A DNA stretch of 21,724 nt from Frankia sp. CIT1 (GCA_917627385.1 CAKJTL010000092.1:35523-57246), one strand, 5' to 3'; counted from the first letter of the stretch, positions 2,880-21,724 are shown. Program-made: numbers and translations. Notes: generated by a model not told the origin, from the sequence alone.

Positions 2880-5846
2880 TCATACTTTTTCGGACTGAAT
2901 CAGCTTCTTGGCGGCATGCGGTTTCGGTGACCCGGCCCGCTCACCGGGCCTGCGGGAGTCAGCCGGGGCCGCGTCGGCCGGCTCCCCGGTCGGCTCCCCG
3001 GTCGGCTCACCAGCCGGCTCGGCGGTCAACTCGCCGGCCGGCTCCCCAGTCGGCTCACCAGCCGGCTCGGCAGTGGAGCCGGCGGTGTCGCTGTCCTCCC
3101 CGAGATAGGCACGGATCACATCGGGATTGGTCCGGATCTCCTCAGGTGCCCCTTCGGCGATCTTCCGACCGAAGTCGAGCACCGCGATGCGGTCGCAGAT
3201 GCCGAGGACCAGCGGAATGTCATGCTCGATCAGCAGAACGGCGGTGTTGCGCCGCTCGGCGATCCCCCGGATGACCGTCCCGATCTCGGCGCTCTCATGG
3301 GAGTCCAGACCGGCGGCCGGCTCGTCGAGGAACAGCACGTTCGGATCAGCGAGCAGCGCCCGAGCCACGCCGACGAGCCGCGCCCGGCCATGCGGAAGCT
3401 CAGCGGGCTTGCTGTCCAGCAGATCCGTCAGCCCGAACTCCTCGATGATCTCTTCCATGGTGACGGACGGACGCTGCCGCCCAGGACGGATCATGTCGGT
3501 GAAGTAGTACCCCGGCGCCTGGGTGTCCGCGGCGGCGAGCAGATTCTCCCGGACCGTCATGTCCGGGAACAGCTCGACCGCCTGGAAGGACCGGGCCAGC
3601 CCGGCCCGTGCCCGCCGTACCGGCGACCATCCGGCGATGGGCTTCCCGTCGAGCAGCACCTCACCCGACGTCGGCTTGGTGAAGCCGGTGACGATGTCCA
3701 GCAAGGTCGTCTTGCCCGCGCCGTTGGGGCCGATCAGCCCCAGCACCTTGCCCGGCTCAACGCGCAGGTTGACGTCGATGAGCGCCTGCACCCCACCGAA
3801 ACGGACGCTGAGATTACGCACCTCAAGAACCGCGGGCTCACGGCGACGGCTGGCGGCCGGACTGTCAGCGGCAGCTCCGTCGGCTCCGTCGGCTCCGTCG
3901 GAAGCGGCGGTCGCGCCGGTCGCGCCGGTCGCGGTGGTACCAGCGGGCGCCGCACCGTCTACAGCCGGCGCTGGTGCCGATCCGCCGCCGCGCAGCCGTG
4001 CGACAAGTGCCTGATAACCATCGGAGTTGAGTTTGGCGATCCCGTCCGGGGCCTGGAAAAGTGTCAGGATGACGCCACCACCGGCGATGAGGGGCAGCCA
4101 GCCGCTGATGTCACCGAGCGAATCAACGATCTTCGCCGTGACACCGCCCGCAATCATGGTGGCGCCGGCCAGGCTGCCCGACGCCCAGCCAATACCGCCA
4201 ATCACCGCATACATGACGACGTTGATGGACCCGAACACGTCGAACTGAGTGAAGACCACGGTCGGGCTGCGGAACCCGGTGAGGATCCCGCCGATCGCGC
4301 CGATCGCGGCGGCCAGGCCGAAAGCGTAGAGCTTGGCCCCGTAGACCCCGATGCCGATCGACGCGGCAGCCCGCTCATTGCTGCGGATCGCCAGCAGCCG
4401 CCGACCGGTGCGGCCACGCCGCACATTGGCCACGAGGAGACCGAGCAACACCAACATGATCAGGACAAGAGTCGCGTAGCGCCGAGGGTAGGTGATCGGG
4501 TCGAGGTCGACACCGAACAGGGACGGCGTCCCGACATTGGTCCCGTCAAGCCCGCCGGTAAGCTCACCGTTACCCAAGATCATATTCTGGATCACCAGTG
4601 CCAGGCCGAGCGTGGCGACCGCGAGGTTAACCCCACGGGTACGCAGTGCGGGCAGCGCCACAATGAGACCGGCCGGTATCGCGGCAAGAACACCGACGAG
4701 TGCCGCCAGCCAGAATGGCCACCCCGACGCGGCGACCAGCCGGGCCGCGACCCAGGCACCGAAGCCGGCCAACGCCCACTGACTGAGCGAGAGCTGTCCA
4801 GCGTAACCGGTGACGACGACGACGGACAGCACGAGCACCGCCGCGATGAAGGTCGTGGCGAGCGAGTCGACCCAGTCGGTAGGCACTGTCCAGACGAGCA
4901 ACGCACCCGCGGCGATCGCCGGAATGAGCAGCGGCAGGTTCACCCGTCCTGGACCGGGCAACGGCAACCGCACGGGAAGGTCACCGCGGGCGGGCCGGGC
5001 ACGTCCACCGAGAGTGAGAATGACGATAATCAACAGGAACGGTACGGAATCCGCGAGCCCGGTGACGTCGGCGAGGTAGCGTCCGACCTCCGCCTGCACG
5101 ACACCGAGCAGCATGGCGCCGCCGATCGTGAGCAGGAAGGACGAGAAGCCTCCGACCAGCGCCGCCGCGAGCGCGGGAACGACAAGCAGGGTGAGTGCAC
5201 CCGCGGACAGTCCGGTGATGGGCGCGAGAAAGATCGCGGCGGTGGCGTACAGCGCGCCGCCGACGCTCCAGTTCACCAGCTCAATCATGGATGTCGACCA
5301 TCCGGAGGCCGCTGCCGTGCGCCGGTTCTCCGCCACCGCCGTGGTCGCGAGACCGAACCGGGTCCGGGAATAGATCAACCACAGGACGGCCGCGAGCACG
5401 ATCAGAAGACCGATGAGGACGATACGGTCCTTACCGATGACCAACGAGCCGGTCACGTGGACCGCCTTGGTCGGCAGGATCGACTTCACCAGCTCCTGCA
5501 CGGACCCCCAGACAAGCACCACCACGCCCTCGAGGAACAGCAGGACTCCGAGCGTGGCGATGAGCTTGACCAACGCGGAGGCCCGGCGCAGCGGGACCAT
5601 GACCAACAGGTGGGTGGCACCACCCAGCGCCGCCCCGAACGCGATACTCAGCACCAGCGCGGCGATCCAGTTCACATGATGGGTGTCGCGCAGGTCATAG
5701 AAGACGAAGGCGGCGAAACCGCCCGTCACGCCGCTGGCGAAGTTCAGTACTCCGGAGGCTCGGAAGACCAGCACGATCCCGAGCGCGGCCAGCGCGTACA
5801 AGCTGCCCGTGCCAAGACCCAGCAGGGCAAAGCGGAGGAAATCCAC
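2880..5846 (-). CDS. Triple-fusion ABC transporter subunit: LivH-like permease + LivM-like permease + LivG-like ATPase, with a low-complexity C-terminal tail
   Basis: Single uninterrupted 988-aa ORF. Residues 1-290 are a LivH-type permease (MDFLRFALLGLGTGSLYALAALGIVLVF...). Residues 300-640 or so are a LivM-type permease (...GYAGQLSLSQWALAGFGAWVAARL...). A Thr/Gly/Ala/Asp-rich linker (TTATGATGATAASDGADGADGAA) follows. Then comes a LivG-type ATPase (VLEVRNLSVRFGGVQAL...GPNGAGKTTLL...LDEPAAGL...). The C-terminus is an (EPxG)n tail. Confidence 0.85.
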   Translation of the reverse strand: MDFLRFALLGLGTGSLYALAALGIVLVFRASGVLNFASGVTGGFAAFVFYDLRDTHHVNWIAALVLSIAFGAALGGATHLLVMVPLRRASALVKLIATLGVLLFLEGVVVLVWGSVQELVKSILPTKAVHVTGSLVIGKDRIVLIGLLIVLAAVLWLIYSRTRFGLATTAVAENRRTAAASGWSTSMIELVNWSVGGALYATAAIFLAPITGLSAGALTLLVVPALAAALVGGFSSFLLTIGGAMLLGVVQAEVGRYLADVTGLADSVPFLLIIVILTLGGRARPARGDLPVRLPLPGPGRVNLPLLIPAIAAGALLVWTVPTDWVDSLATTFIAAVLVLSVVVVTGYAGQLSLSQWALAGFGAWVAARLVAASGWPFWLAALVGVLAAIPAGLIVALPALRTRGVNLAVATLGLALVIQNMILGNGELTGGLDGTNVGTPSLFGVDLDPITYPRRYATLVLIMLVLLGLLVANVRRGRTGRRLLAIRSNERAAASIGIGVYGAKLYAFGLAAAIGAIGGILTGFRSPTVVFTQFDVFGSINVVMYAVIGGIGWASGSLAGATMIAGGVTAKIVDSLGDISGWLPLIAGGGVILTLFQAPDGIAKLNSDGYQALVARLRGGGSAPAPAVDGAAPAGTTATGATGATAASDGADGADGAAADSPAASRRREPAVLEVRNLSVRFGGVQALIDVNLRVEPGKVLGLIGPNGAGKTTLLDIVTGFTKPTSGEVLLDGKPIAGWSPVRRARAGLARSFQAVELFPDMTVRENLLAAADTQAPGYYFTDMIRPGRQRPSVTMEEIIEEFGLTDLLDSKPAELPHGRARLVGVARALLADPNVLFLDEPAAGLDSHESAEIGTVIRGIAERRNTAVLLIEHDIPLVLGICDRIAVLDFGRKIAEGAPEEIRTNPDVIRAYLGEDSDTAGSTAEPAGEPTGEPAGELTAEPAGEPTGEPTGEPADAAPADSRRPGERAGSPKPHAAKKLIQSEKV
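2975..3080. repeat. 12-bp periodic in-frame tandem repeat (about 8 units, cggctcNNNNgN) encoding the C-terminal (P-A/T-G-E)n tail of the fused transporter
   Basis: Read directly: cggctccccggt cggctccccggt cggctcaccagc cggctcggcggt ... It translates on the minus strand as PAGEPTGEPAGELTAEPAGEPTGEPTGEP. Confidence 0.7.
3873..3934. repeat. 9-bp in-frame tandem repeats (gctccgtcg x3; gtcgcgccg x2.5) encoding the permease-ATPase linker
   Basis: Read directly. It translates as TGATGATAASDGADGADGA within the fusion protein. Confidence 0.6.
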
Positions 5847-5933
5847 GTCGGAAAGCCTTTCTGCCGAGAACGCGGGTATGCCGGCGCACCCGGCCGCGGG
5901 AGGAACCGCGGCCGGGTGCCGAAACAGCCGCGG

Positions 5934-7151
5934 TTAGGAGCTGCCGAGGACGTTGAATGCCTGGTTGTCGAACAGTGGTGTACGGGTACCGTTTTTGACC
6001 TCGGAGAAGTACACACTGGTGGTGAAAATCCGGTTACCGTCGAACAGAACCTTGATCGGCTTGGCGAAGTCCACCTTGGGCAGCGGCGAGAAGTCGATCT
6101 CTCCGGCGGTATTCAGAGCATTGGCCAGGCTCTCCCCGTCGATCGTGGTCAGCTTCGCCGCGTACTGGGCCACCAAGTGGACGGTCGCCCACGCGGTCAT
6201 GGCACCTTCGCTGCGGGTGTCAGCGGCAACACCGGCGGCATCCAGCTCGGAGTTGAACTGCTTGATCGCGGGAATGGTGGTATCGCTGGCCGGTGGCATC
6301 GAACCAACCAGCACCAGCCCGTCCGCGGCCGATCCAAGCGTCTTGATCATTTTATCCTCGATGACCGTAGCGCCGTAGGCGGTCGTGACCTTGGAGCCCG
6401 CCTGCGAGAGCGCCTGCAACAGCTTGGACGCCTGGCTCGAGCCCAGCACCATGTCGATGCAGTCGGTGGTGCCGCTGGTCAACGTGGCCGCGCTGGTCGT
6501 CAGGTCGGTGGCAGTCGGCGCGATCGGCACAGTCTTGTTGATGTTCAGGTTGAACGACTTGAGGCCGATGCCGAAGAAGGAAGCCGAGTTGCGTCCAGCC
6601 GCGATGTCGACGACCGCGACGGCCGGATCCTTCTTACCCAGCTTGCCACAGGCCGTCCCGCCACCGGCGATGTTGACCGCGCCGCTGCCGAACGGGAAGG
6701 AGTACGGGCTCTTGAGCTCACTGGCGCTGCTCGGTACTTCACCGATCGCCGGGATCTTCGCCTTCTCCAGGATCGGCATGTACCGGTCGCCGGTGCTGGA
6801 GTTGGCCGTCACGAACAGGTACTTGCCCTGAACGGCCTGGGTCGCACAATCAGCGCCCTTGTTCGGGTCGAACTGGTCATCGCAGGCGGTGACCTCCAGC
6901 GGCCGGCCCTTGATACCGCCGGCCTTGTTGATTGCTTGAGCCGCGGCCTTCACCGCCGCGGGGACTCCCGGGTAGCTGTCGGACGGGCCTGACAGCGCCT
7001 GGATCGTCATGATCTTTATGGGTTCGCCGGAAAGCTTGGTCGCCGACCCCGACGCGGCACTCCCGTCATTCGACGAAGAACTACCGCATGCGGCCAGCGC
7101 GAGGGCACCGGCAAGCGCTACGGCGAAGGGTGCCTTCGAGCGGACTTTCAT
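5934..7151 (-). CDS. ABC transporter substrate-binding lipoprotein, branched-chain amino-acid (Leu/Ile/Val-binding, Peripla_BP_6-like) family
   Basis: ORF 5934..7256. The best start is ATG at 7149-7151 (MKVRSKAPFAVALAGALALAACGSSSS...), preceded by AAGGAGG. It has a lipoprotein signal peptide with a lipobox LAAC. It is the first gene of the operon. Third-position GC is noticeably lower than in neighbouring genes. Confidence 0.85.
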   Translation of the reverse strand: MKVRSKAPFAVALAGALALAACGSSSSNDGSAASGSATKLSGEPIKIMTIQALSGPSDSYPGVPAAVKAAAQAINKAGGIKGRPLEVTACDDQFDPNKGADCATQAVQGKYLFVTANSSTGDRYMPILEKAKIPAIGEVPSSASELKSPYSFPFGSGAVNIAGGGTACGKLGKKDPAVAVVDIAAGRNSASFFGIGLKSFNLNINKTVPIAPTATDLTTSAATLTSGTTDCIDMVLGSSQASKLLQALSQAGSKVTTAYGATVIEDKMIKTLGSAADGLVLVGSMPPASDTTIPAIKQFNSELDAAGVAADTRSEGAMTAWATVHLVAQYAAKLTTIDGESLANALNTAGEIDFSPLPKVDFAKPIKVLFDGNRIFTTSVYFSEVKNGTRTPLFDNQAFNVLGSS

Positions 7152-12264: not shown

Positions 12265-14031
12265 GTGACTGTGAGTCGCGAGCAGCTCCGCCGTGAAGCG
12301 GACAGGGCGATCGACGAGGTGCTCGCGGGACGGGAAGCGTGCGAGCTGGAGTCGCAGACACTCGACTTCAAGGAGCTGAAGCGTCCCGCGGGCAACGACC
12401 GCGACCTGCTGAAGGCCGCGGCTGCCGACCTCGCCGAAGCTGTGGCCTGCCTGGCCAACAGCCGGGGCGGGACGGTCATCGTCGGGGTGCGCGACGATGG
12501 GGCTGGGCCCGCGGCCATCGTGGGCGTACCCACCGACCTCGACATAGACGATCTTCGCCATCGAATCTGGCAGCACACGTCGCCATCCTTGGTAGTCGAT
12601 ATTGAAAGTCGCGTCGCACACGGCATGCGGCTGCTTCTCATCACCGTGGAAACAGCATTTGACCTGGTTCGGGCTGGTGGAAAACTTCGCGAACGGATGG
12701 GCACCTCCTGCGAACCGATGGCTCCTGGCCGGGAAGCCGTCATCCGTGACGAGCGCCGTGGATACGACTGGTCCGCCGAGCCCACGCACCTGCGGGTCGA
12801 CGACGTGTCCCCACGCGCGGTCGAGGAGGCACGCCGTGGGCTCACCGAGGCGGGAGACGCCCAGAGCCGTCGGCGTGCCGAGCTAAGCGTCACCGACCTC
12901 CTGCGTGAGTGCGCGGTTCTGGACAGCAGCGGACATCTCACCCGGGGAGGTGCCCTGCTGTTCAGTAGCCTGCACCCTTTCGCCGCTGATCCGACAATCC
13001 AGTACCTGCGGCGGCGGACGCCGGCCGGTCCCCTTACCCGTCCATCATCAGTCCACCGAACTCCCCTGATTGTCGCCCTGGCCGATCTTCTTCGGGATAT
13101 TGACGCAATCAACGAGACCACGTCGGTCACACTTCCCACCGGCGTGCAACAACAACTCGAAACGATTCCCGGCCCGGCCGCGCGCGAAGCCGTGGTCAAC
13201 GCAATCGCACACCGCGACTACCGGCATCGTGAGCCGGTAGTCGTCGAGCACAGCCCCAGCCGGCTCGTTGTGACATCACCTGGGGAGCTGGTGTTCGGGG
13301 TAACCGAGGAGAACTTGCTCACGCATGTGTCCAAGCCGCGAAACCGCTGCCTGGTCGAGGCGCTGCGGGTGCTCCGCCTGGCGGAAAGAGCCGGCACTGG
13401 TGTCGATGTGATGGTACGGGTCATGATCCGCGCAGGACATCCGCCGCCGGTCTTTACAAGCAGGAGCGGGAGCGTCCGGGTCGTCATCGACGGCGGTGCT
13501 CCTGTGACACGCCTTGCGGTAATGATCGCAAGCCTGCCTGTTGAGGTGCAGGACGACACTGATGCAATTCTGCTCATTCATTTCCTGCGGTCCCATGCGA
13601 CCGTCGATGCGGTTAAGATCGCTCCTATCCTCCAGAAGAGCGTTGAAGAGGCATCCGAGGCTCTCCGGCGGCTGTCGGACGACACCTACGATCTGCTGGA
13701 GCCGGTTCGAGCGACACGCCGGTACCGGATACCCGCGTATCGCTTCCGGGAACGTACGCGCGCGGAACTGGGCACGCTGCTGCCCTACCATCGCAACGAC
13801 TCCGATGAGATCGAGCGTCGTATCGTCGCACACCTGCGCGAATATGGGACGATCTCCAACCAGACCGTCCAGAACCTGTTCCTGGTGGGGGTCCAGCGGG
13901 CGAGCACGCTCCTGCGTTCGCTCGCGGAGAAGGGCGTGCTCCAGCGCACGGCCGACTCGCCGACCCGCGGACCGACCGTCAGGTACGAAGCCGGGCCGGC
14001 GTTTCCACAACGCGGCAGCCGCCGCCGATGA
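12265..14031 (+). CDS. Schlafen-like ATPase/DNA-binding protein: AlbA_2 (divergent AAA) domain + HATPase_c_4 ('RecG C-terminal-like', COG2865 family)
   Basis: 588-aa ORF starting at GTG. N-terminal 'LDFKELKRPAGNDRDLLKAAAADLAEAVACLANSRGGTVIVGVRDDGAG' fits AlbA_2. The central 'AREAVVNAIAHRDYRHREPVVVE' matches the NAxxHRDY signature of HATPase_c_4. The C-terminus has a wHTH-like region. This is recalled motif similarity with no search. Confidence 0.7.
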   Translation: MTVSREQLRREADRAIDEVLAGREACELESQTLDFKELKRPAGNDRDLLKAAAADLAEAVACLANSRGGTVIVGVRDDGAGPAAIVGVPTDLDIDDLRHRIWQHTSPSLVVDIESRVAHGMRLLLITVETAFDLVRAGGKLRERMGTSCEPMAPGREAVIRDERRGYDWSAEPTHLRVDDVSPRAVEEARRGLTEAGDAQSRRRAELSVTDLLRECAVLDSSGHLTRGGALLFSSLHPFAADPTIQYLRRRTPAGPLTRPSSVHRTPLIVALADLLRDIDAINETTSVTLPTGVQQQLETIPGPAAREAVVNAIAHRDYRHREPVVVEHSPSRLVVTSPGELVFGVTEENLLTHVSKPRNRCLVEALRVLRLAERAGTGVDVMVRVMIRAGHPPPVFTSRSGSVRVVIDGGAPVTRLAVMIASLPVEVQDDTDAILLIHFLRSHATVDAVKIAPILQKSVEEASEALRRLSDDTYDLLEPVRATRRYRIPAYRFRERTRAELGTLLPYHRNDSDEIERRIVAHLREYGTISNQTVQNLFLVGVQRASTLLRSLAEKGVLQRTADSPTRGPTVRYEAGPAFPQRGSRRR

Positions 14032-14084
14032 AACCGAGGGATGCGGGTCACTGTGAGCGCGCCAAGACCACCCACGACAACCAC

Positions 14085-14759
14085 ATGACCGAACGCCCCT
14101 ACATCCTGCTGTCGGCCGCCACATCCGTGGACGGCTATCTCGACGACACCGCCAACCAACGGCTGATAATCTCCAACAAGGCCGACCTCGACCGGGTCGA
14201 CGAAGTCCGTGCCAGCGTCGACGCCATCCTGGTAGGCGCGAACACCATCCGCCGCGACAACCCCCGGCTGCTGGTCCGCTCGATAGCCCGCCGCACCGAC
14301 CGGATAACCCGCGGCCTCCCCGAAAACCCCATCAAAATCACCCTCACCAGTCGCGGCGACCTCGACCCCACCGCCAGCTTCTTCACCACCGGGCCAGCCG
14401 AGAAAATCGTCTATGTCACGACTCCCGCCGTGAACAAGACCCGCGAGCACCTCACCGACGTGGCATCTGTCGTGGACACCGGTAACCCACTCGACCTCCA
14501 CACCCTCCTGGCCGACCTCGCCGCGCGCGGCGTACGCCGGCTGATGGTCGAGGGCGGCGGCACCATCCACACCCAGTTCCTCACCGCCGGGCTCGCCAAC
14601 GAGATCCACCTGGTGATCGCACCGTTCTTCATCGGCGACCCGGCCGCACCCCGCTTCGCCGGCACCGGCACCTTTCCCCACCACCCCGGCCACCGGATGA
14701 CACTGGCCGAGGCCCGTCAGCTCGACGACGTCGTCTTCCTGCGCTACCTGCTCGGCTGA
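14085..14759 (+). CDS. RibD C-terminal domain / dihydrofolate-reductase-like reductase
   Basis: ORF 14028..14759. ATG 14085 (MTERPYILLSAATSVDGYLDD...) fits the family N-terminus (xRKvilyiAxSLDGyIA). The alternative start ATG 14028 overlaps the upstream TGA as ATGA, implying possible translational coupling. The C-terminal 'RRLMVEGGGTIHTQFL' is typical of RibD_C. Confidence 0.8.
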   Translation: MTERPYILLSAATSVDGYLDDTANQRLIISNKADLDRVDEVRASVDAILVGANTIRRDNPRLLVRSIARRTDRITRGLPENPIKITLTSRGDLDPTASFFTTGPAEKIVYVTTPAVNKTREHLTDVASVVDTGNPLDLHTLLADLAARGVRRLMVEGGGTIHTQFLTAGLANEIHLVIAPFFIGDPAAPRFAGTGTFPHHPGHRMTLAEARQLDDVVFLRYLLG

Positions 14760-14811
14760 CCTCTGTTCTGTGGTCGGCATTGTCAGCGGCGTCCGAGCGG
14801 TGTGGTTGACG

Positions 14812-15354
14812 TCAGAGTGCCAGCCACTTGTCGAATGAGGGCCTGTCGATCACTTCAGGAGGACTTCCTCGCTGATGAGTGCGGAGGGTCTGGGTATATC
14901 CCCACAAGGCGTCAGCGTCGACCCATTCCCGCTTGGCCGCGACCTTCAACAGGTGCCAGGTCCTGACTACTTTGATCTTGTTCCGAGCGGCGAGCCGTAC
15001 GGCATCGTTGTCATCGGTGACGAAGAATCCGTGCACGCGGCGACGGATCATGATTGCGAGCGTCTCGGCTTCACCGAGGTGTCGGTGAGGGTGGTCGCCT
15101 GGGCTGGCAAGCTCCTCGCGAAGAAGCCTCGTGTCCTGAAGTTCTGCCGCGTCGGGGAACCAGGGCGACCCGAAAATGCCCCTGGCATCGGCCAACGCGG
15201 CGAGACCGGGTTTGCGTGCCGACGAGTCGCATTCCGCTGCCACGGTGGCGCACCAGTGGCCGTGGCCGTTCGCCAGCCGCTCCAGCAGATCCATCCGGTT
15301 GATGATCGCAAAATTGATCAGAACTGTGTTGTCCGGGAACAGGAGCACGGCCAC
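14812..15354 (-). CDS. PIN-like (VapC-like) putative nuclease / toxin partner of the upstream XRE-ImmA gene
   Basis: 180-aa ORF. The GTG start at 15352-15354 lies 3 nt after the upstream gene's TGA. N-terminal 'VLLFPDNTVLINFAIINRMDLLERL' resembles PIN strand-1 (DxNVLI). 'GEAETLA' and 'FFVTDDNDAVRLA' supply the further acidic residues of a PIN active site. Assigned from memory of motifs. Confidence 0.6.
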   Translation of the reverse strand: MAVLLFPDNTVLINFAIINRMDLLERLANGHGHWCATVAAECDSSARKPGLAALADARGIFGSPWFPDAAELQDTRLLREELASPGDHPHRHLGEAETLAIMIRRRVHGFFVTDDNDAVRLAARNKIKVVRTWHLLKVAAKREWVDADALWGYTQTLRTHQRGSPPEVIDRPSFDKWLAL

Positions 15355-15357
15355 GGT

Positions 15358-16461
15358 TCAGAGGTCCAACGCCCTAGCAAGATCATCAATGGTCACCTCA
15401 GGCACTGCGGGGATGTCAACATCCAGCGCATCGGGATCAATACCGAGCATCCAGGCGAGCGTTCCCTTGCCGAGGGTCCCGGCTTCGATCCCTTTGAGGT
15501 GCGCCTCCTGCAGCGTGAGGGGGAAACGACGCTGGGCGGCTGCGTCCATACGCAAAGTGATCTCATCTTTACCTGAATTGGGCGCCCGGTGACGCCGCAA
15601 CAAACGCTGGGTCGGTTGTCCGGCCCATTCCCGCACCACATCGGGCACGTAGCCGTTCAGGGCATGCAGGCGGCGGGCGAGTGCGTCGGTGGACACACCC
15701 CACCGCCACACGAGGTCAGCCAGCCCGGCCGCCTCGTACCGGTCCCAGTCGATCACGGCAAGCGACTCACGGGGGAGCAGAAGCTCCGCCGCGAACGCGT
15801 TCGCGGCCGCCTCGCGCTGGTCCCGCTCGGCCGCGGAGAACCCCTGGTCGTGGTGACCCCAGACGAGATGGCCCAACTCATGTGCCATTGACCAGTTCTC
15901 CCAGAACCAGTTCCCGGTCGCCGAGAGCGCGATCACATGGCGGCCACCGATGGTGAACGAGTACGCGGTGGACAGGTCTGCGATCCGCACAACATCGACG
16001 CCGAACCGGCTCTCCAGCCGATCCGCGAAGGGGCGCACGAAGTCCTCACCCAGCGCCACCCTGACCCCATCAGCACCAGCCCCGTCAACACTCTCTGGAA
16101 GGGCTGGTCCGTGCTGCGGTTCGGAGTAGGCCTGACGGTAGGCCAAGGCGATGTCGCGTAGCACCAGCCCGTCAGCGTCACGCTCGGGTACGCTCCGACG
16201 ACCCGTCAGGTGATTAAAATCGTGACGCGCCGCGACGATCAGCCGATGCGGGTCGGGCTGTCCGGTGATCAGCCAATGGATGTCCGCATCCAGCAGGTCA
16301 GCCAGGCGCGCCAACTCGATCGAGGAGAAGGCGCGCTTGCCGTTTAGCGCGCGCGAGAACGCATCGGGCGGCATCCCGATGTCCGCCGCGATGTCCCGCT
16401 GCCGGGTGGTGGGGCAGACCTGCCTGATATGCTCCAGCACGCGGTCACCAATACTGTGCAT
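15358..16461 (-). CDS. XRE-family HTH transcriptional regulator fused to an ImmA/IrrE-family Zn-metallopeptidase (COG2856)
   Basis: 367-aa ORF with ATG at 16459-16461. The N-terminal HTH is 'TRQRDIAADIGMPPDAFSRALNGKRAFSSIELARLADLLDADIHWLITG'. The HEXXH zinc motif is 'SMAHELGHLVWGHHD'. A C-terminal extension of about 100 aa follows. Confidence 0.85.
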   Translation of the reverse strand: MHSIGDRVLEHIRQVCPTTRQRDIAADIGMPPDAFSRALNGKRAFSSIELARLADLLDADIHWLITGQPDPHRLIVAARHDFNHLTGRRSVPERDADGLVLRDIALAYRQAYSEPQHGPALPESVDGAGADGVRVALGEDFVRPFADRLESRFGVDVVRIADLSTAYSFTIGGRHVIALSATGNWFWENWSMAHELGHLVWGHHDQGFSAAERDQREAAANAFAAELLLPRESLAVIDWDRYEAAGLADLVWRWGVSTDALARRLHALNGYVPDVVREWAGQPTQRLLRRHRAPNSGKDEITLRMDAAAQRRFPLTLQEAHLKGIEAGTLGKGTLAWMLGIDPDALDVDIPAVPEVTIDDLARALDL

Positions 16462-16476
16462 ACATGCATGCTACCT

Positions 16477-16503
16477 GTTCCGTTGGGAAAATCCCAACGG
16501 AAC
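16477..16503. promoter_or_regulatory. Perfect 12-bp inverted repeat GTTCCGTTGGGA-aaa-TCCCAACGGAAC, 16 nt upstream of the XRE-ImmA start codon; candidate autoregulatory operator
   Basis: Read directly. The arms contain CCGTTG / CAACGG half-sites, which recur at 16637-16656. Confidence 0.5.
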
Positions 16504-16636
16504 GCATCTGTCCGGGCCACGTGGCTACCTCCGCGGGGCCTACCCCAGCGCCGCAGCCACGGCACGACGGATGGACGTCCGAAACCCCCGTGTCGGGCAG
16601 AAAATACGTGTCGCTCTTCCACTCGTGACCTGCCGA

Positions 16637-16656
16637 ACCGTTGTGACCAACGGTAT
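16637..16656. terminator. Hairpin ACCGTTG-tgac-CAACGGT just downstream of the SPFH gene stop; candidate terminator and/or second operator
   Basis: 7-bp stem and 4-nt loop, 10 nt after the SPFH stop on the minus strand. There is no clear U-tract, as is common in high-GC actinobacteria. It shares half-sites with the 16477-16503 palindrome. Confidence 0.3.
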
Positions 16657-16665
16657 CGCGAACCA

Positions 16666-17925
16666 TTACTCAGCCGGTGACTCGACGACCTCCGCATGCG
16701 AGGCGTCCTGTTGCGCGGCGCGCACGGCGGCATCCGCGGATGAGCCGCCGGCCGGGGCGATCTGTGGACGCGGGCCGTCGCTGGAAAACTCGGCTGTCGG
16801 GCCGCCGCTGAGCGAGCCGATCAGGTTCGTCAGTTCACGCATGATGTCGGGCCCGAACCCGGCCAGCCCGGTCATCAGACTGACCAGCCCCTTGTCGTGG
16901 GAACCCGCAATGTAGGTCCGCAGGTTCGGCAGTAGTTTGCCCTTGGCCTCCAGGATCTCCGGTAGCCTTTCCACGATCATCCGTTGGATGTTCTCCTCGT
17001 GGTGGCCGCCTTCAATACGCAGCCGTTCGGCCAGTTTGTATGCCTCCAGCTCGGCCAGTGCCCGGGCGTGGTCGCGTTCCGACGCCCGGCTTTCATCCGC
17101 CACCGCTATGCGTGCCCTGGCGACTTCCAGCCGTCTCAGCTCAGCATAGGTGTCGGCATCCGCTCTGGCCCGCTCCGCCGTCAGCCGCTCGTTCGCCTCC
17201 CGCCGGGACCGCGTGGCACTGATCTGATCCTCTATAGCCAGTTTGGTCGTAAGCGTCCGCAGGTGAGCGTCCAGCGATATCTTCTTCTCCCGCTCCGCCA
17301 CCCAGTCCGCAGGCAGCACAACGTTCGCGACGGACAGTGGCCGCGGTTCGAATCCCATCTCCACCAGTGCCGGCCTGGACCTCCACATCACCTCGTCCGC
17401 GATCTTTCCGAAATCGCGATCGACCTGCCCCATGGCCCGTTCGCCCACCACGTCACGAATATGTACGACAAGGGTGTCGATGACTTGCCGGTGCATGTTC
17501 TCCGTGTCCTCGCCGAAATGCTCGCTCACCGTCCGGATCGCCTGCTCGTCTCGTGGGATCCGAAAAGCTGTACGAAGATCGAGCGTCAGCGGCACCTCGT
17601 CGGAGGACTGACAGGTCACCCGGAACTCGATCGGCTGCCACTGCAACGAAATCTTGGTGAGGATGGCGCCCGGAGGGAGGAAGATCCGCCCTTTCAGCAC
17701 CACCTTGATGCGATGATCCCACCACCCCGAGACGACACCCGCCTCGTCCTGGCCCAGCGGTTCCGACAATTTTGCCATGACGACTCCTAGAACAAACAGC
17801 GCCAGCAGCGCGAAGAATAATTTGGGGATGACGAACAACAGCCAGCCGGCCAGCGCTGTCACCGCGATCAGCGCGCCGAGATTCCAGGGTGACTGGTTCC
17901 TCAGCCATGCACGCCAGTCATTCAT
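16666..17925 (-). CDS. SPFH / band-7 (flotillin-stomatin-like) membrane protein with C-terminal coiled coil
   Basis: ORF 16666..17973 with TTG at the ORF end. ATG at 17923-17925 (MNDWRAWLRN...) is 17 nt after the subtilase stop. One or two N-terminal TM helices are present ('LGALIAVTALAGWLLFVIPKLFFALLALFVLGVVMA'). The SPFH core is 'IKVVLKGRIFLPPGAI...VPLTLDLRTAFRIPRDEQAIRTV'. A long Arg/Glu/Ala-rich coiled coil follows ('RREANERLTAERARADADTYAELRRLEVARARIAV...'). Confidence 0.8.
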   Translation of the reverse strand: MNDWRAWLRNQSPWNLGALIAVTALAGWLLFVIPKLFFALLALFVLGVVMAKLSEPLGQDEAGVVSGWWDHRIKVVLKGRIFLPPGAILTKISLQWQPIEFRVTCQSSDEVPLTLDLRTAFRIPRDEQAIRTVSEHFGEDTENMHRQVIDTLVVHIRDVVGERAMGQVDRDFGKIADEVMWRSRPALVEMGFEPRPLSVANVVLPADWVAEREKKISLDAHLRTLTTKLAIEDQISATRSRREANERLTAERARADADTYAELRRLEVARARIAVADESRASERDHARALAELEAYKLAERLRIEGGHHEENIQRMIVERLPEILEAKGKLLPNLRTYIAGSHDKGLVSLMTGLAGFGPDIMRELTNLIGSLSGGPTAEFSSDGPRPQIAPAGGSSADAAVRAAQQDASHAEVVESPAE

Positions 17926-17941
17926 ATCGGCCCCGGTGTCA

Positions 17942-19447
17942 TCAGACTGACTGGATGGCCCGCATGACGTCAACCAGGCCGTGCCCCTGAAACTCCCGTA
18001 CCCGGCCGAGATCGGTCGCGGAGTCCAGGAAAACCTTTTTTACCCGTTCGGGGCTGCCGATAAACTCGCTACGCACCGAGAGAAAGGCGGCGATGGCCCC
18101 GGAGACGTGTGCCGCCGCCAAGCTCGTCCCGCTGAACTCGCTGTAGTCTGGATAGTCCCAGTCCTCGTCGTCGGGCTGGGCCGTCGAGCTGACGCAGCTC
18201 ACAATGTGTTCGCCGGGGGCGACAAGGTCCGGCTTGAGCCGGCCATCCCCCGTCGGCCCCTTGGAGGAAAAATAGGAAACCCCGTACCGGTGCGGAGCGA
18301 CTCGATGCGTGGAGCCGACCGTGATAGCGCCGAAGGCGTTTCCTGGATCGTTGATCGTAACGCCCGCGCTGAAATCATCGGTGTTCCGGGCTACTTCCGT
18401 CCGCACGAAACCCGAATTGCCGGCGGCAACGACCACCAACACGCCCGAGGCGACCATGCGGTCGACCTCGTTGCACAGCGGGGAATACCCGCCGACAAAC
18501 CACTCCGGGTAAAACGAGTAGCCAAGGCTCAGATTTACTCCGTGAATGCGAATGTTACGGCCGTAGTCGTTGACCCGCTGGATGTGCTCCAGCGCCGCGA
18601 TCACCGCACTCACGTTGGCCAGCCGGCCCGCGCCGAACACTTTGTAGCTCACAATCTTACAACGCGGGGCGACACCGCCGATCCTGGTGATCGCGGACGT
18701 GTACGCATCCACCGTCTTGTCGCCGTCAAGCAGCATCTGGCGGACACGTAACCGACGTCCACCGGTTTCGGCGGAGTCAGCCGCCACCTCACCCGCGATG
18801 ATACCGGCGACCGGCGTGCCATGCCCGATACCATAATCATCCCGGGTTGGAGCGTTGCCGTCCGTCAGATCGACGTGCTCAAGTTGAGCCGGCAGACTGA
18901 GATTGTCCCATTTAGCAAAGTGTGGGTGCCGCTCGTCAACCCCGGAGTCGACAACCGCCCAGACAATGTTTTCACCGAACGCGCCGAAGGTTGCCTGAGC
19001 CGCGTCGCCCTTTATCACCGCCACGGACCTGTCCAGCAGCGCCGAAACTTCGAAGTCGGGCCAGACCCGCCGGATCGCGCGCAGCCGCCAGTTGCCGGCA
19101 TCCTGTTCAGCCTGCTCGACATCGACGTGGACGACCCAGCGCACAGCCTCCGGCGGGAGGACCGCGACGACGTAGGAACGGCCCAGCTCCCGAGACAGCC
19201 GCGACTCACCGATGTCGTCGAACACGTTCATCTCGCTGAACCGCACGGCTGCCTCGGTCAGCAGCGTGCGCACGGTATTCGCGGCACCGCGGCGGCCGGC
19301 GGGGAAATCCGGGTTGAGGTCGAAGATGACCCGGACGGTGCCCGATGCACTTCGGCTCTCCAGCTCTGTCAGCCGCGACTCCAGCGCAGGCGTGATGACG
19401 GACCGGGCATGCGTTACCGGCCGGCGGCCAGGATCATCGAATTTCAT
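17942..19447 (-). CDS. Subtilisin-like S8 serine peptidase lacking a signal peptide (predicted cytoplasmic)
   Basis: ORF 17942..19549. The 5' 100 nt of the ORF are AT-rich with A/T third positions and contain a palindrome, so they are probably non-coding. The likely start is ATG at 19445-19447 (MKFDDPGRRP...), with GGGGGA 6 nt upstream. An alternative start is ATG 19478-19480. The catalytic Asp is in 'WAVVDSGVD', the His in 'GHGTPVAG', the Asn in 'AAGNSG', and the Ser in 'SGTSLAAAHVSGAIAAF'. No hydrophobic N-terminal signal is present. Confidence 0.85.
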   Translation of the reverse strand: MKFDDPGRRPVTHARSVITPALESRLTELESRSASGTVRVIFDLNPDFPAGRRGAANTVRTLLTEAAVRFSEMNVFDDIGESRLSRELGRSYVVAVLPPEAVRWVVHVDVEQAEQDAGNWRLRAIRRVWPDFEVSALLDRSVAVIKGDAAQATFGAFGENIVWAVVDSGVDERHPHFAKWDNLSLPAQLEHVDLTDGNAPTRDDYGIGHGTPVAGIIAGEVAADSAETGGRRLRVRQMLLDGDKTVDAYTSAITRIGGVAPRCKIVSYKVFGAGRLANVSAVIAALEHIQRVNDYGRNIRIHGVNLSLGYSFYPEWFVGGYSPLCNEVDRMVASGVLVVVAAGNSGFVRTEVARNTDDFSAGVTINDPGNAFGAITVGSTHRVAPHRYGVSYFSSKGPTGDGRLKPDLVAPGEHIVSCVSSTAQPDDEDWDYPDYSEFSGTSLAAAHVSGAIAAFLSVRSEFIGSPERVKKVFLDSATDLGRVREFQGHGLVDVMRAIQSV

Positions 19448-19516
19448 TACGTCCCCCGATCTGCGGCATTGGACGGCCATGGGACCGCCGGATCCGACTA
19501 TATATGCGATAAGGCT

Positions 19517-19529
19517 GGGGAAATTCCCC
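19517..19529. promoter_or_regulatory. Palindrome GGGGAA-A-TTCCCC in the AT-rich spacer between the TIR-WD40 and subtilase genes
   Basis: Read directly. It is flanked by low-GC sequence (ctatatatgcgataagg). This is a candidate internal operator or promoter region. Confidence 0.35.
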
Positions 19530-19563
19530 CTGATACGGGATTGCCGCACTCACTCAAACGTCC

Positions 19564-21453
19564 CTACGGGTGGAAAGGTTCCGCATCGTCGACCGGATGC
19601 GTAGCCGACGGGGACGTGGACGGGTTCGGCAGACGCCACAGAGCCGCCTCACCGGCGTCGGATGCGGTGGCGAACCAGCGCCCGTCAGGGCTGAACGCGA
19701 CCGCGTTTACGCGCGGTTCGTGCACCGATCGGTGCCTCGCCGGCCCCGCGGAAAGATCATAAACAAAGACCACCCGATATGCCGGGCTGTGCGCGGCCAT
19801 GAAACGTCCGTCCCGGCTGACGGTAAGCGCGCCCGGCGTTCTGGGGTGGGAGAACCGTGCCCGTACCCGGCAGGCTGCCACGTCGATAAACGAGATGACC
19901 ATCGAACGGTGGCGTAACACAAGCAACTGGCCGGCCAGGCCGAGCGCGGCGTCCACTACCTCGGAGCCCGCCGCGGTGAAGTCCCCAGCATCTTTACCGG
20001 CCGCCGAGGGGTAGACGCAGGCACCGGTGGCGAGCGCCCACAGCCGTGGCGAACAGCTGTCATCCAGGGTGACCAGCCACCCGCCATCCCAACTGAACCG
20101 AGCCGCCGTCACACGACGTACCGTCTCCACGGTCTTCCTGACCTCGCCACTGGCGCTGTGGCGCATCACAAGGCACTCCGACCGGGTGTCCCGAAGCGCG
20201 ATGAAGCGACCGTCCGGGCTCGCCGCGACAAAGGCCTCCCCCTCGGCCCCCAACCGGCTTCCGGCCAAGGCAATGCCCAGGTCAACGCCCAGGTCAACGC
20301 CCAGGTCATGGCGCCAAGCACCGGCCTGCGGGAAACAGCTCAACAGGTACCGCCCAGCCGGGCCGAACAACAGCGCGGGGGGCGTCTGTCCACTCGCCCA
20401 GAGGTGGGTCACCCGAGCAGCCGACACATCCCACAATCGGGAATTCCCGTCCAGACAAACCGTTGCGAGCAGCGAGTCATCGGGGCTGAACACGGCATGC
20501 CGAACCGGTGCCGGATGCACGAAGGTCCCTTGGCAGCGGAGGCTGTCGACCTTCCAGCACCGGACCGCGCCGTCCCGACCGCCTGTCACCAGCCGCCGCG
20601 AGTCGGAACTGAACGCAACCACGAGTACGGGCGACGGCCGGCCGACGGCTGAGGGGCTGGCATGCCGCAGAACGCCCACCTTCGTCGGCCCGCCGTCAGC
20701 CACGATCCCGGCCAGCGGCCGAACCGGCTTCCGTCCGGTAGACGGGCCGTTCTCAGCCGCCGGAGATGCGGGCACCGGCCGCGCCCGGGACTCCGGCGGC
20801 TGCCGCGTGCTGTCTAGCGCACCGCATGGTGCGCCGTCTGGCGCGCTGTCTGGCGACCCCGGAAACGGGTATGGGGGTGGAACCGGACCGGCGCGATCCG
20901 CAGGCAGGAGGGTCGGGCCGGGGAAGTCCGGCTCGGACGCTGGTTTCCCCCGCCCTGACATGGCCGCGGTGACGCCCGCGAGCAGCCGCTCACGGGCGTC
21001 GTCCGCCGTCAGTCCGAAGATGTCGAAGGAGACCACCCGCCCCAGCAAACCCGGCCGGGGACAGTCCTCGACGCGGACGGGGATCAGCTTGCGTTCCGTG
21101 CCGCTCTGGTCGGCTAGGTGGGCGGCCTCCCATTCGGTGCGGCCCCACCCCGACTCAAGGTAGGCGGCCGAAAGGATCGCCAGGGTATGGCGGGCGCCGC
21201 GGATACCTTCCTCCATTCGCGCGGTCCAGTGTGTACCCGGCACGAAGTCCCATTTCTGGAACAGCACCCGATAGCCGGCTCGCTCCAGCTGCCACGCGAT
21301 CCACTCGGCCCAGGGCATGTCCGCGGCGGTATAGGAAATGAAAAAATGCCATGACGCGACGACAGGCAGCGGGACTGACATTGGTGGAGTGGCTGCCGCG
21401 GGCGGCGCGGCCCGCGGCAGCCGGCGCTGCGCATCGTCAGCACGCTCGAGCAT
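19564..21453 (-). CDS. TIR-domain protein fused via a Pro-rich disordered linker to a 7-bladed WD40 beta-propeller, with no NTPase domain
   Basis: ORF 19564..21495. The likely start is ATG at 21451-21453, with GGGGGGAA upstream. Alternatives are ATG 21493-21495 and ATG 21379-21381. The TIR domain is 'SWHFFISYTAADMPWAEWIAWQLERAGYRVLFQKWDFVPG...LAILSAAYLESGWGRTEWEAA', which carries the S..Y..S.W...E motif including the putative catalytic Glu. A linker of about 100 aa follows ('GKPASEPDFPGPTLLPADRAGPVPPPYPFPGSPDSAPDG...'). WD40 blades include 'VVAFSSDSRRLVTGGRDGAVRCWKV', 'AVFSPDDSLLATVCLDGNSRLWDV' and 'AVAFSPDGRWFATASDAGEAALWRL'. Confidence 0.8.
   Translation of the reverse strand: MLERADDAQRRLPRAAPPAAATPPMSVPLPVVASWHFFISYTAADMPWAEWIAWQLERAGYRVLFQKWDFVPGTHWTARMEEGIRGARHTLAILSAAYLESGWGRTEWEAAHLADQSGTERKLIPVRVEDCPRPGLLGRVVSFDIFGLTADDARERLLAGVTAAMSGRGKPASEPDFPGPTLLPADRAGPVPPPYPFPGSPDSAPDGAPCGALDSTRQPPESRARPVPASPAAENGPSTGRKPVRPLAGIVADGGPTKVGVLRHASPSAVGRPSPVLVVAFSSDSRRLVTGGRDGAVRCWKVDSLRCQGTFVHPAPVRHAVFSPDDSLLATVCLDGNSRLWDVSAARVTHLWASGQTPPALLFGPAGRYLLSCFPQAGAWRHDLGVDLGVDLGIALAGSRLGAEGEAFVAASPDGRFIALRDTRSECLVMRHSASGEVRKTVETVRRVTAARFSWDGGWLVTLDDSCSPRLWALATGACVYPSAAGKDAGDFTAAGSEVVDAALGLAGQLLVLRHRSMVISFIDVAACRVRARFSHPRTPGALTVSRDGRFMAAHSPAYRVVFVYDLSAGPARHRSVHEPRVNAVAFSPDGRWFATASDAGEAALWRLPNPSTSPSATHPVDDAEPFHP
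20275..20310. repeat. 12-bp in-frame tandem repeat x3 (gcccaggtcaac) inside the WD40 region, encoding DLGVDLGVDLGI
   Basis: Read directly. Confidence 0.6.
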
Positions 21454-21556
21454 GGTTCCCCCCGGATGAACCAGCGCCACCGAATGAATCAGCATCGACG
21501 CAGCGAAGCGTACGCCGAAGGCGACCCGCCTACCGGTACGCCCGCCCGGTGTGGAC

Positions 21557-21661
21557 GGGCGCCGCCGATCCCCACAGCGGATTCACGGCTTCTGCTGTCG
21601 CATCCGTCGGTGACGAGGACGGCTTGGACGGTGGATGGCCCGAACGGGGCGCCGCCGATCC
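21557..21661. repeat. Direct repeat of 15-17 bp (ACGGGCGCCGCCGATCC) at 21557-21573 and 21645-21661, upstream of the TIR-WD40 gene
   Basis: Read directly. The two copies are about 88 bp apart in a non-coding stretch. Confidence 0.45.
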
Positions 21662-21724
21662 AGCCCAGTTGGGCGGCCTATCCTCGGGCGCTCTAAGTGG
21701 TCGCCGCCGGGAGTTCGTCCAGGG

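Follow-up and report, generated by a model that had tools for sequence, protein, structure and literature searches.

SPFH proteins of prokaryotes are classically encoded in operons with a protease, and it is with such pairs, and with protease- and TIR-bearing conflict systems, that we compare a locus of Frankia sp. CIT1. The DNA analysed is a stretch of 21,724 nt (GCA_917627385.1 CAKJTL010000092.1:35523-57246; "the window" hereafter means this whole stretch), and the locus is a cassette of three genes, for a TIR-WD40 protein, a cytosolic subtilisin-like protease of family S8 (subtilase) with a predicted prodomain, and a flotillin-like SPFH membrane protein. The cassette is a real, conserved unit with the hallmarks of a conflict system. 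With a probability of roughly 0.45, we read its three genes as one conflict module: a rare, Frankia-centred offshoot of a family of pro-subtilases with variable partners, to which a WD40 protein carrying an output domain has been added, and which would cause cell death through the TIR domain. The sensing part, the cleaved partner, the NADase activity and the immune role are all things that we infer. An earlier note on this DNA knew of no named system with this combination, and none matched in PADLOC, NCBIfam or full-text literature searches; the latter returned no description of an S8-SPFH or a TIR-WD40-S8-SPFH system.

Among SPFH-protease pairs, stomatin-NfeD/STOPP, QmcA-YbbJ and HflK/C-FtsH resemble the cassette in that an SPFH protein with an N-terminal anchor, a coiled coil and a C-terminal region stands beside a protease, and the folds match. 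In contrast to HflK/C-FtsH and stomatin-NfeD, however, the protease of the cassette is a soluble S8 enzyme without an anchor, not an AAA+ metalloprotease or an NfeD/ClpP-type protease; it has no transmembrane segment and is not a membrane-anchored partner of the FtsH or NfeD type. In addition, the cassette SPFH protein belongs to a very rare subfamily with a C-terminal motif of its own, and a TIR-WD40 gene is attached to the pair.

A second group of described systems joins a protease to an effector that it activates. For membrane effectors, two reports describe bacterial gasdermins cleaved by caspase-like proteases and HET-Q1 cleaved by the S8 protease HET-Q2 (10.1101/2021.06.07.447441; PMC8851545), and pairs of a trypsin-like protease and a pro-nuclease are reportedly protease-activated effector systems as well (PMC12799240). 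Such pairs are like the S8 family of the cassette in that the protease is tightly coupled to a partner that varies from locus to locus, and WD40 or other repeat sensors frequently accompany their proteases; fungal HET-Q1/HET-Q2 shares the S8 protease as well. The cassette differs from them in containing neither gasdermin nor nuclease (the neighbours of its protease gene are the SPFH and TIR-WD40 genes), in that the partners within its S8 family are SPFH proteins or hydrolases, and in the predicted prodomain of its protease, and cleavage is only putative here. Protease-activated effector systems typically keep the protease constant and exchange the enzyme that is paired with it.

The conflict systems of Kaur et al. 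2020 (PMC7159879) have in common with the cassette an actinobacterial host, alternation of TIR and EAD1, repeat sensors and a peptidase component. They differ in their NTPase core (STAND, MoxR or GTPase), which is present neither in the cassette nor beside it. We class the cassette with those conflict systems of multicellular bacteria that bear TIR domains and proteases; an S8-SPFH core is not among the systems described in PMC7159879. By Pfam, no EAD occurs in the proteins of the window, and EAD1 takes the place of TIR in the related cassette of JGI 3300041966.

Other immune systems match less of the locus. Thoeris and single- or two-gene TIR systems are like the cassette in having a TIR domain with a catalytic-type Glu and an expected action on NAD+. 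A ThsA-type effector (SIR2, Macro or SLOG/transmembrane) was not found in the five genes scanned (12265-21495), DNA beyond 21724 lying outside the scan, and the PADLOC Thoeris model gave no match, the TIR matches being weak and generic. The Pfam and PADLOC scans of the locus showed no CD-NTase or pyrimidine cyclase of the CBASS or Pycsar kind, and gene 1 has no central P-loop NTPase as in STAND or NLR-like systems (Avs, bNACHT, NB-ARC-TPR), although related TIR domains are fused to NB-ARC elsewhere. IetAS, a defence system reportedly found by Gao et al. 2020, is said to include an S8 protease, and the cassette is like it in placing such a protease in a candidate defence context. The IetS/IteS models match the cassette S8 weakly (1.8e-13 in PADLOC; 34.2 bits against a cutoff of 900 in NCBIfam), and the cassette has no IetA ATPase. 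A more distant likeness is to the eukaryotic vault, in which TEP1, a protein with a TIR-like NADase and WD40 repeats, resides inside the cage of major vault protein (MVP; 10.64898/2026.05.01.722283). MVP chains are among the structural matches of our SPFH protein, and TEP1, like gene 1, joins such an NADase with WD40. On the other hand, TEP1 contains NACHT, TROVE and DUF4062-type TIR-like domains rather than TIR_2, MVP is a soluble protein, and no S8 protease belongs to the vault. The parallel is one of architecture only, any homology being apparent in the SPFH-like fold alone.

The three genes lie co-directionally on the minus strand at 16666-21495, as the earlier note had described, and its three domain calls (TIR_2/WD40, Peptidase_S8, Band_7) all proved right by hidden Markov model searches. 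Gaps are 83 nt between gene 1 and the S8 gene (14 nt with a GTG start of the latter) and 16 nt between the S8 and SPFH genes. The SPFH subfamily, which a highly conserved C-terminal motif (VERLPEILEAKGKLLPNLRTYIAGS...) defines, is exceedingly rare. Among 5.8 billion proteins, a word-indexed search matched 4; an exhaustive HMMER search of 1.84 billion representatives gave 10 clusters below 1e-30, then a gap to generic SPFH proteins; and 185,579 species genomes hold two loci, in Parafrankia colletiae Cc1.17 and Streptomyces sp. cf386. Scans of metagenome contigs and viral contigs with the SPFH alignment gave no match. In all six contexts that could be read (the window clade, Frankia Cpl3/P. colletiae, JGI 3300041966, JGI 3300047160, GCA_963555855 and Streptomyces cf386), an S8 gene of the same clade stands directly upstream of the SPFH gene. 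Identities of the S8 and SPFH proteins to those of the window fall in the same rank across four lineages (89/74, 66/47, 63/41 and 60/32%), with one discordant pair.

Upstream of the S8-SPFH pair, on the same strand, three lineages carry a gene for an N-terminal domain followed by WD40. The combination is found beyond the source genome as well: in Frankia Cpl3 and P. colletiae Cc1.17 the upstream gene is again TIR-WD40, only ~30% identical to gene 1 of the window, and in the JGI metagenome contig 3300041966 it is EAD1-WD40, with PF19955 in place of TIR. PMC7159879 describes EAD1 as a non-enzymatic, effector-recruiting adaptor that alternates with directly fused effectors, and Frankia as holding the record copy number. 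Nothing else points as strongly to a conflict-type system as this alternation of TIR and EAD1 while the rest of the cassette stays constant, and such a swap is what Kaur et al. 2020 give as the signature of conflict systems. A fusion of S8 to WD40 repeats beside a STAND conflict locus of Thiohalocapsa, recorded in PMC10907252, gives independent support for the link between S8 and WD40.

Searches with the S8 protein place the cassette in a far wider setting. They returned 7,986 proteins at E <=1e-10, and the best 120 of these, spread over Actinomycetota, Chloroflexota, Gemmatimonadota, Acidobacteriota and numerous metagenomes, are mostly ~50% identical over at least 86% of the query, prodomain included. 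The usual gene directly downstream encodes a ~440-aa protein with weak alpha/beta-hydrolase, DUF900 and lipase matches, found in four genomes (Carbonactinospora, Arthrobacter, a Herpetosiphonaceae metagenome-assembled genome and Streptomyces cf386) and at 16 metagenome loci; the possibility that it is an SPFH protein was rejected, blastp showing a different family. Other partners, at gaps of 9-170 nt, are a PF04185 phosphoesterase, a calcineurin-like phosphoesterase (Metallophos), an MBL-fold protein (three loci) and one further protein; one S8 locus has a 1828-aa protein followed by SIR2_2, and a multi-transmembrane protein lies upstream of S8 in several family loci. We define a pro-subtilase plus variable partner cassette as an S8 with at least 40% identity, prodomain included, and a co-directional partner within ~170 nt; the window cassette, with SPFH 16 nt downstream, falls within this definition. 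S8 is the constant part of a very large, multi-phylum family, and SPFH a rare partner of it. In Streptomyces cf386 the order is S8, alpha/beta-hydrolase, SPFH homologue, and this coexistence suggests that SPFH was added as an accessory and not swapped in as an effector. A scan of viral contigs with the S8 alignment gave generic S8 proteins only, at <=30% identity, and no close relative, and when Pfam was applied to 20 more genes that neighbour S8 genes of this family, defence genes were not consistently enriched.

Several family loci show further features around S8. At one of the more distant loci (L041, JAAUYH010204501.1), two S8 paralogs flank an MBL-fold gene, with a DUF900 hydrolase upstream. 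At others of these, GMC oxidoreductases adjoin S8 in L033 and L034, and an animal-type haem peroxidase is nearby in L036. A 2025 study in Science reportedly concerns a nuclease-protease pair of the NucA-peptidase type. In Arthrobacter sp. B2I5 (L008), a Trypsin_2 + Endonuclease_NS fusion, which is the NucA-peptidase type of Kaur et al. 2020 (PMC7159879), lies two genes upstream of the S8-hydrolase pair, with M36 and M28 peptidases nearby.

The S8 protein matches Peptidase_S8 with E 8.9e-45 (153.6 bits). As the earlier note had read it, the D/H/N/S set is intact and there is no signal peptide: D178, H220, N355 and S453 are invariant across an alignment of 48 family sequences, and a hydrophobicity check found neither a hydrophobic N-terminus nor a transmembrane segment. 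What that note did not contain is a putative N-terminal prodomain, which emerged from structure prediction and Foldseek. In the AlphaFold2 (AF2) model (48 sequences; predicted local distance difference test score, pLDDT, 72; predicted template modelling score 0.80), the best PDB matches are unprocessed ProN-Tk-SP (3afg), pro-subtilisin E (3whi) and pro-Tk-subtilisin (2e1p). Since no Pfam propeptide model matches the N-terminal segment, the assignment rests on the predicted fold. With this pro-subtilisin-like predicted fold and no signal, S8 has the appearance of a zymogen retained in the cytoplasm. A mycosin identity (type VII secretion system) was considered for S8 and rejected, the score being 88.7 bits against a cutoff of 278.75.

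The reading of gene 3 as a membrane-anchored, SPFH/flotillin-like coiled-coil protein holds by a Band_7 match (E 7e-11, 42.9 bits against a cutoff of 23.6), a hydrophobic hairpin, and the AF2 fold (pLDDT 73; alignment of 5 sequences), whose Foldseek matches include flotillin (E 4.6e-10), stomatin, prohibitin, erlin, HflK/C, QmcA and MVP. Bacterial flotillin FloT (NCBIfam NF058507) is matched at 25.1 bits only, the equivalog cutoff being 700. The hairpin, split by Pro-Lys, likely implies a stomatin- or flotillin-like topology, which would put the SPFH domain in the cytoplasm beside the signal-less S8, and the protein is expected to oligomerise at the cytoplasmic side of the membrane. The C-terminal helical region, after which the AF2 model has a disordered tail, is a candidate for docking or cleavage.

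Gene 1 matches TIR_2 with E 2.7e-37 (128.4 bits against a cutoff of 28), and WD40 and beta-propeller models match it across residues ~285-620. The S..Y..S.W...E motif with its catalytic Glu, pointed out before, is present as SAAYLESGWGRTEW, in which the catalytic-type Glu is residue 121 and falls, in HMMER alignments, on the conserved Glu of solved TIR domains. The Pro-rich linker, put at ~100 aa in the earlier note, measures 110 residues and is a candidate protease-accessible segment; a Pfam scan agrees with that note in finding no STAND, NACHT or other NTPase domain between TIR and WD40. Of the "7-bladed" propeller, the propeller stood, and the number of blades can be given only tentatively: no more than three repeats score as WD40, and 7-8 blade-like units can be seen by eye. 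The propeller's Pfam WD40 score of 75.6 bits is below the 253 bits that a canonical TIR-WD40 protein of Frankia reaches. A further hallmark of conflict systems is that TIR domains of this type recur in other proteins in shuffled architectures, with NB-ARC-TPR, EAD1, kinase, vWA and PNP.

Features of the TIR-WD40 / S8 / SPFH cassette, in window coordinates
Feature	Position	Strand	Basis or remark
Gene 1, TIR-WD40 protein, 643 aa, no NTPase	19564-21495	-	Open reading frame (ORF) and Pfam; same ATG in sister-strain annotation
TIR domain, aa 51-172	20980-21345	-	Pfam TIR_2; Glu121 codon 21133-21135
Pro-rich linker, aa 176-285	20641-20970	-	22% Pro; 12-nt in-frame indel among sister strains
Degenerate WD40 beta-propeller, aa 286-622	19630-20640	-	Three recognisable repeats; 7-8 blade-like units
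Spacer, gene 1 to S8 gene	19481-19563	-	83 nt; AT-richer; contains GGGGAATTTCCCC
Gene 2, cytosolic pro-subtilase S8, 512 aa	17942-19480	-	Annotated ATG (sister-genome start 19480); upstream in-frame GTG at 19549 (ORF 17942-19549)
S8 prodomain (predicted), aa ~26-147	19040-19405	-	AF2 beta-alpha-beta-beta-alpha-beta fold, subtilisin-propeptide-like; Foldseek
S8 catalytic domain	17945-18976	-	Pfam and 48-sequence alignment
S8 catalytic codons	D178 18947-18949; H220 18821-18823; N355 18416-18418; S453 18122-18124	-	
Gene 3, flotillin-like SPFH membrane protein, 419 aa	16666-17925	-	Annotated ATG; upstream TTG at 17973 (ORF 16666-17973)
N-terminal hydrophobic hairpin, aa 13-53	17767-17889	-	Two segments split by Pro-Lys
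SPFH/Band_7 domain, aa 54-203	17317-17766	-	Pfam, AF2, Foldseek
Long coiled-coil helix, ~95 residues, aa 206-301	17023-17310	-	AF2
Subfamily-specific C-terminal helical region, aa 307-373	16807-17007	-	Most conserved motif VERLPEILEAKGKLLPNLRTYIAGS...GLA.FGPDIM

Selection on the cassette can be gauged from close relatives, as the window is ~98% identical to contigs of three sister Frankia assemblies (GCA_917627405/395/335; loci L001-L003). Between the window and sister strain L002 (codon alignment for gene 1), the counts, which are small, come to 0 nonsynonymous and 7 synonymous changes in S8, 4 and 4 in SPFH, 6 and 12 in S8, SPFH and the neighbouring M78 and DUF3368 genes pooled, and 21 and 12 in TIR-WD40, the last with in-frame indels of 18 and 12 nt besides. 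By Fisher test, TIR-WD40 differs from S8 with p = 0.003 and from the pooled neighbour genes with p = 0.046. Within gene 1, the TIR domain has a nonsynonymous rate (pN) of 0.007 against a synonymous rate (pS) of 0.032, and so is under constraint, unlike the linker and WD40 region, in which pN/pS is about 0.85-0.86. The indels relative to L001 and L002 lie near the N-terminus (18 nt) and in the linker (12 nt), and the same comparison shows Leu-to-Arg changes in a short DLGVDLGVDLG repeat of the propeller, with the S8 protein identical. As for composition, the lower third-position GC that had been remarked in the cassette is real though modest: GC at third codon positions (GC3) is 0.76-0.77 in its three genes, versus 0.82-0.89 in metabolic genes of the window, and the low values are shared with the neighbouring Schlafen-like (SLFN), M78 and DUF3368 genes. 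A reduced GC3 fits a conflict system better than a housekeeping module.

We propose that the core consists of WD40, pro-subtilase and SPFH, and that TIR is a fused effector, for which other cassettes would use an effector recruited by EAD1. The WD40 or SPFH parts would sense a perturbation, for example an invader protein or a membrane insult, and the pro-subtilase would be activated through loss of its prodomain. The active protease might then cleave a partner, either in the Pro-rich linker of TIR-WD40 or in the C-terminal region of SPFH. The TIR domain, released or clustered, would degrade NAD+, and the cell would be arrested or die (abortive infection or regulated cell death). The arrangement suggested in the earlier note, in which SPFH gates the subtilase and the subtilase is the effector, finds no backing in the comparative data; S8 is constant, its partner variable and SPFH rare.

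A number of observations weigh against a single conflict module. Obvious defence islands do not flank the related cassettes, which adjoin sigma factors, LysR, SDR and luciferase-like genes, and around S8 genes of the wider family the gene content is mixed. The SPFH protein is covered by no PADLOC model, and the PADLOC 'subtilase' match (PDLC03014, 166 bits) is no stronger than generic Pfam S8 and was not used for membership. The AF2 models of S8 and SPFH are of moderate confidence (pLDDT 72-73), the SPFH alignment comprising 5 sequences. Paralogs of TIR-WD40 are common in Frankia, also without S8 or SPFH; the copy of Frankia sp. QA3 lies in an extracellular contractile injection system locus, and that of FMc6 stands alone. 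The WD40 proteins of cassettes show more degeneration than canonical paralogs do. Those of two lineages share only ~30% identity, less than they share with non-cassette paralogs, so that they are not most closely related to one another, which may mean that the upstream gene was replaced instead of being inherited with the pair. The pN/pS of the WD40 region fits either a diversifying sensor or relaxed constraint, and could reflect decay. Finally, an internal promoter is possible in the 83-nt spacer; a consensus scan found no promoter there, promoter and terminator scans being uninformative for DNA of such high GC.

One alternative is that the functional unit is the S8-SPFH pair only, serving membrane protein processing or quality control, by a logic like that of stomatin-NfeD/STOPP or HflK/C-FtsH, in a housekeeping or developmental role (for example in Frankia hyphal or vesicle membranes), with the protease trimming SPFH or the clients that it holds, WD40 acting as a substrate adaptor and TIR as an interaction domain. 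The classical pairing of SPFH with proteases, the QmcA-YbbJ and HflK/C-FtsH chains among the structural matches, the adjacency of S8 and SPFH in 6/6 contexts, the strong purifying selection on both proteins and the ordinary genes beside related cassettes all speak for it. Against this, the distribution is extremely rare and patchy, which is unexpected for housekeeping; S8 lacks a membrane anchor, unlike FtsH or NfeD; the same S8 family elsewhere pairs with soluble hydrolases and not with SPFH; TIR retains its catalytic-type Glu; and the TIR/EAD1 swap and reduced GC3 suit a conflict system better. We regard this alternative as unlikely.

It is likewise improbable, in our judgement, that TIR-WD40 works as a single-gene system independent of the S8-SPFH pair next to it, or is a paralog in decay, the trio being a co-location in a hotspot. 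The numerous Frankia paralogs found alone or in the injection-system locus, the 83-nt spacer, the distant relationship among the cassette WD40 proteins of different lineages, the degenerate repeats, and the raised nonsynonymous change and indels in WD40 and linker would all suit such a neighbour. Yet three lineages, with S8 proteins only 63-66% identical, have a gene for an N-terminal domain plus WD40 at the same place and in the same orientation, the EAD1 variant included; the reading frame of gene 1 is intact in all sister strains despite the indels; the TIR domain is constrained; and S8-WD40 fusions exist elsewhere.

A third alternative makes SPFH the effector, cleavage by the pro-subtilase turning a membrane scaffold into a membrane-disrupting assembly, with TIR-WD40 as an upstream sensor or amplifier. 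The SPFH gene does occupy the position that hydrolase, effector-like partners have across the S8 family, its C-terminal region is strongly conserved ahead of a disordered tail, and protease-activated membrane effectors have precedents in 10.1101/2021.06.07.447441 and PMC8851545. The coexistence of a hydrolase partner and SPFH in Streptomyces cf386 suggests, however, that SPFH is an accessory and no replacement for an effector, and TIR is itself a typical effector. We know of no SPFH protein that forms pores, and we consider this alternative quite unlikely. More doubtful still is the idea that SPFH forms a membrane-attached cage, a containment nanocompartment and architectural counterpart of the vault, whose MVP cage has an SPFH-like shoulder, and that this cage holds the TIR-WD40 NADase and the pro-subtilase inactive until proteolysis or opening releases them, and that the pro-subtilase plus variable hydrolase family is a new, widespread class of protease-activated effectors.

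If the single conflict module that we favour is functional, the cassette would add a membrane scaffold of the SPFH/flotillin type to the known parts of bacterial conflict systems, and would be a case of a TIR effector controlled without any NTPase. A multi-phylum family of pro-subtilases with a swappable partner (lipase-like, phosphoesterase, MBL fold or SPFH) would extend to subtilases the logic by which a protease activates a dormant effector. The cassette is also a simple bacterial system for asking how SPFH cages and the proteases of neighbouring genes work on each other, a question shared with stomatin, flotillin and prohibitin.

The window DNA is high in GC and actinobacterial, and its proteins are 95-100% identical to proteins named by NCBI as Frankia sp. 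Cj3 and CiP3. The left two thirds encode ordinary metabolism (amidohydrolase, fused branched-chain ABC transporter, binding protein, aldo-keto reductase, CoA-transferase, enoyl-CoA hydratase and ABM monooxygenase). Rightwards from ~12.2 kb, the order is an AlbA_2 + HATPase_c_4 gene, RibD_C, DUF3368, HTH + M78, then the cassette. The Schlafen-like ATPase reported near the cassette is there as a neighbour, and its identity is corrected by Pfam to an AlbA_2 + HATPase_c_4 protein. The toxin-antitoxin-like module reported there is also present, as the HTH + M78 peptidase gene together with the DUF3368 gene. These two (14812-16461, minus strand), an ImmA/IrrE-like M78 gene and a DUF3368 gene 3 nt on, have weak matches to PADLOC RmrA/CapP and to the NCBIfam 'spr1629 family repressor/antitoxin'. 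They form a separate module, because a 204-nt region follows the SPFH gene and the pair is absent from the other cassettes.

A perfect palindrome, GTTCCGTTGGGA-TTT-TCCCAACGGAAC, with 12-bp arms, lies at 16477-16503 on the minus strand, 16 nt upstream of the ATG of the HTH + M78 gene (15358-16461). It is probably the operator of this XRE-type regulator or the terminator of the SPFH gene; a second strong hairpin occurs slightly upstream. All three sister contigs stop ~210 nt upstream of gene 1, their ends falling within ~20 nt of the window end (21496-21724 region, L001-L003), and the common break point of three independent assemblies suggests a repeat or mobile element immediately upstream of the TIR-WD40 gene. 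In sister strain L003 (GCA_917627335) the SPFH gene looks split, a reading that was rejected, as the 410-nt run of N at L003 2959-3368 is a scaffold gap and not an insertion; SLFN, called as split genes in L001 and L003, may be explained similarly. In Frankia and Carbonactinospora, a 44-aa ORF was called behind the SPFH gene, and it was set aside as gene-caller noise, the two peptides being unrelated.

The TIR-WD40 paralog of QA3 has 509 aa, in a locus (CM001489.1 2994552-3010081) with sheath, tube, eCIS_core, Pvc16_N and AAA genes, and could be a cargo or regulator of the injection system. In the metabolic part of the window, a 988-aa ORF (2880-5846, minus strand) encodes a fusion in which two permease domains of the branched-chain ABC type are joined to an ABC ATPase and, at the C-terminus, to a PT (Pro-Thr) repeat; the GC by codon position of a 1256-aa ORF opposite it (3222-6992) is not coding-like.

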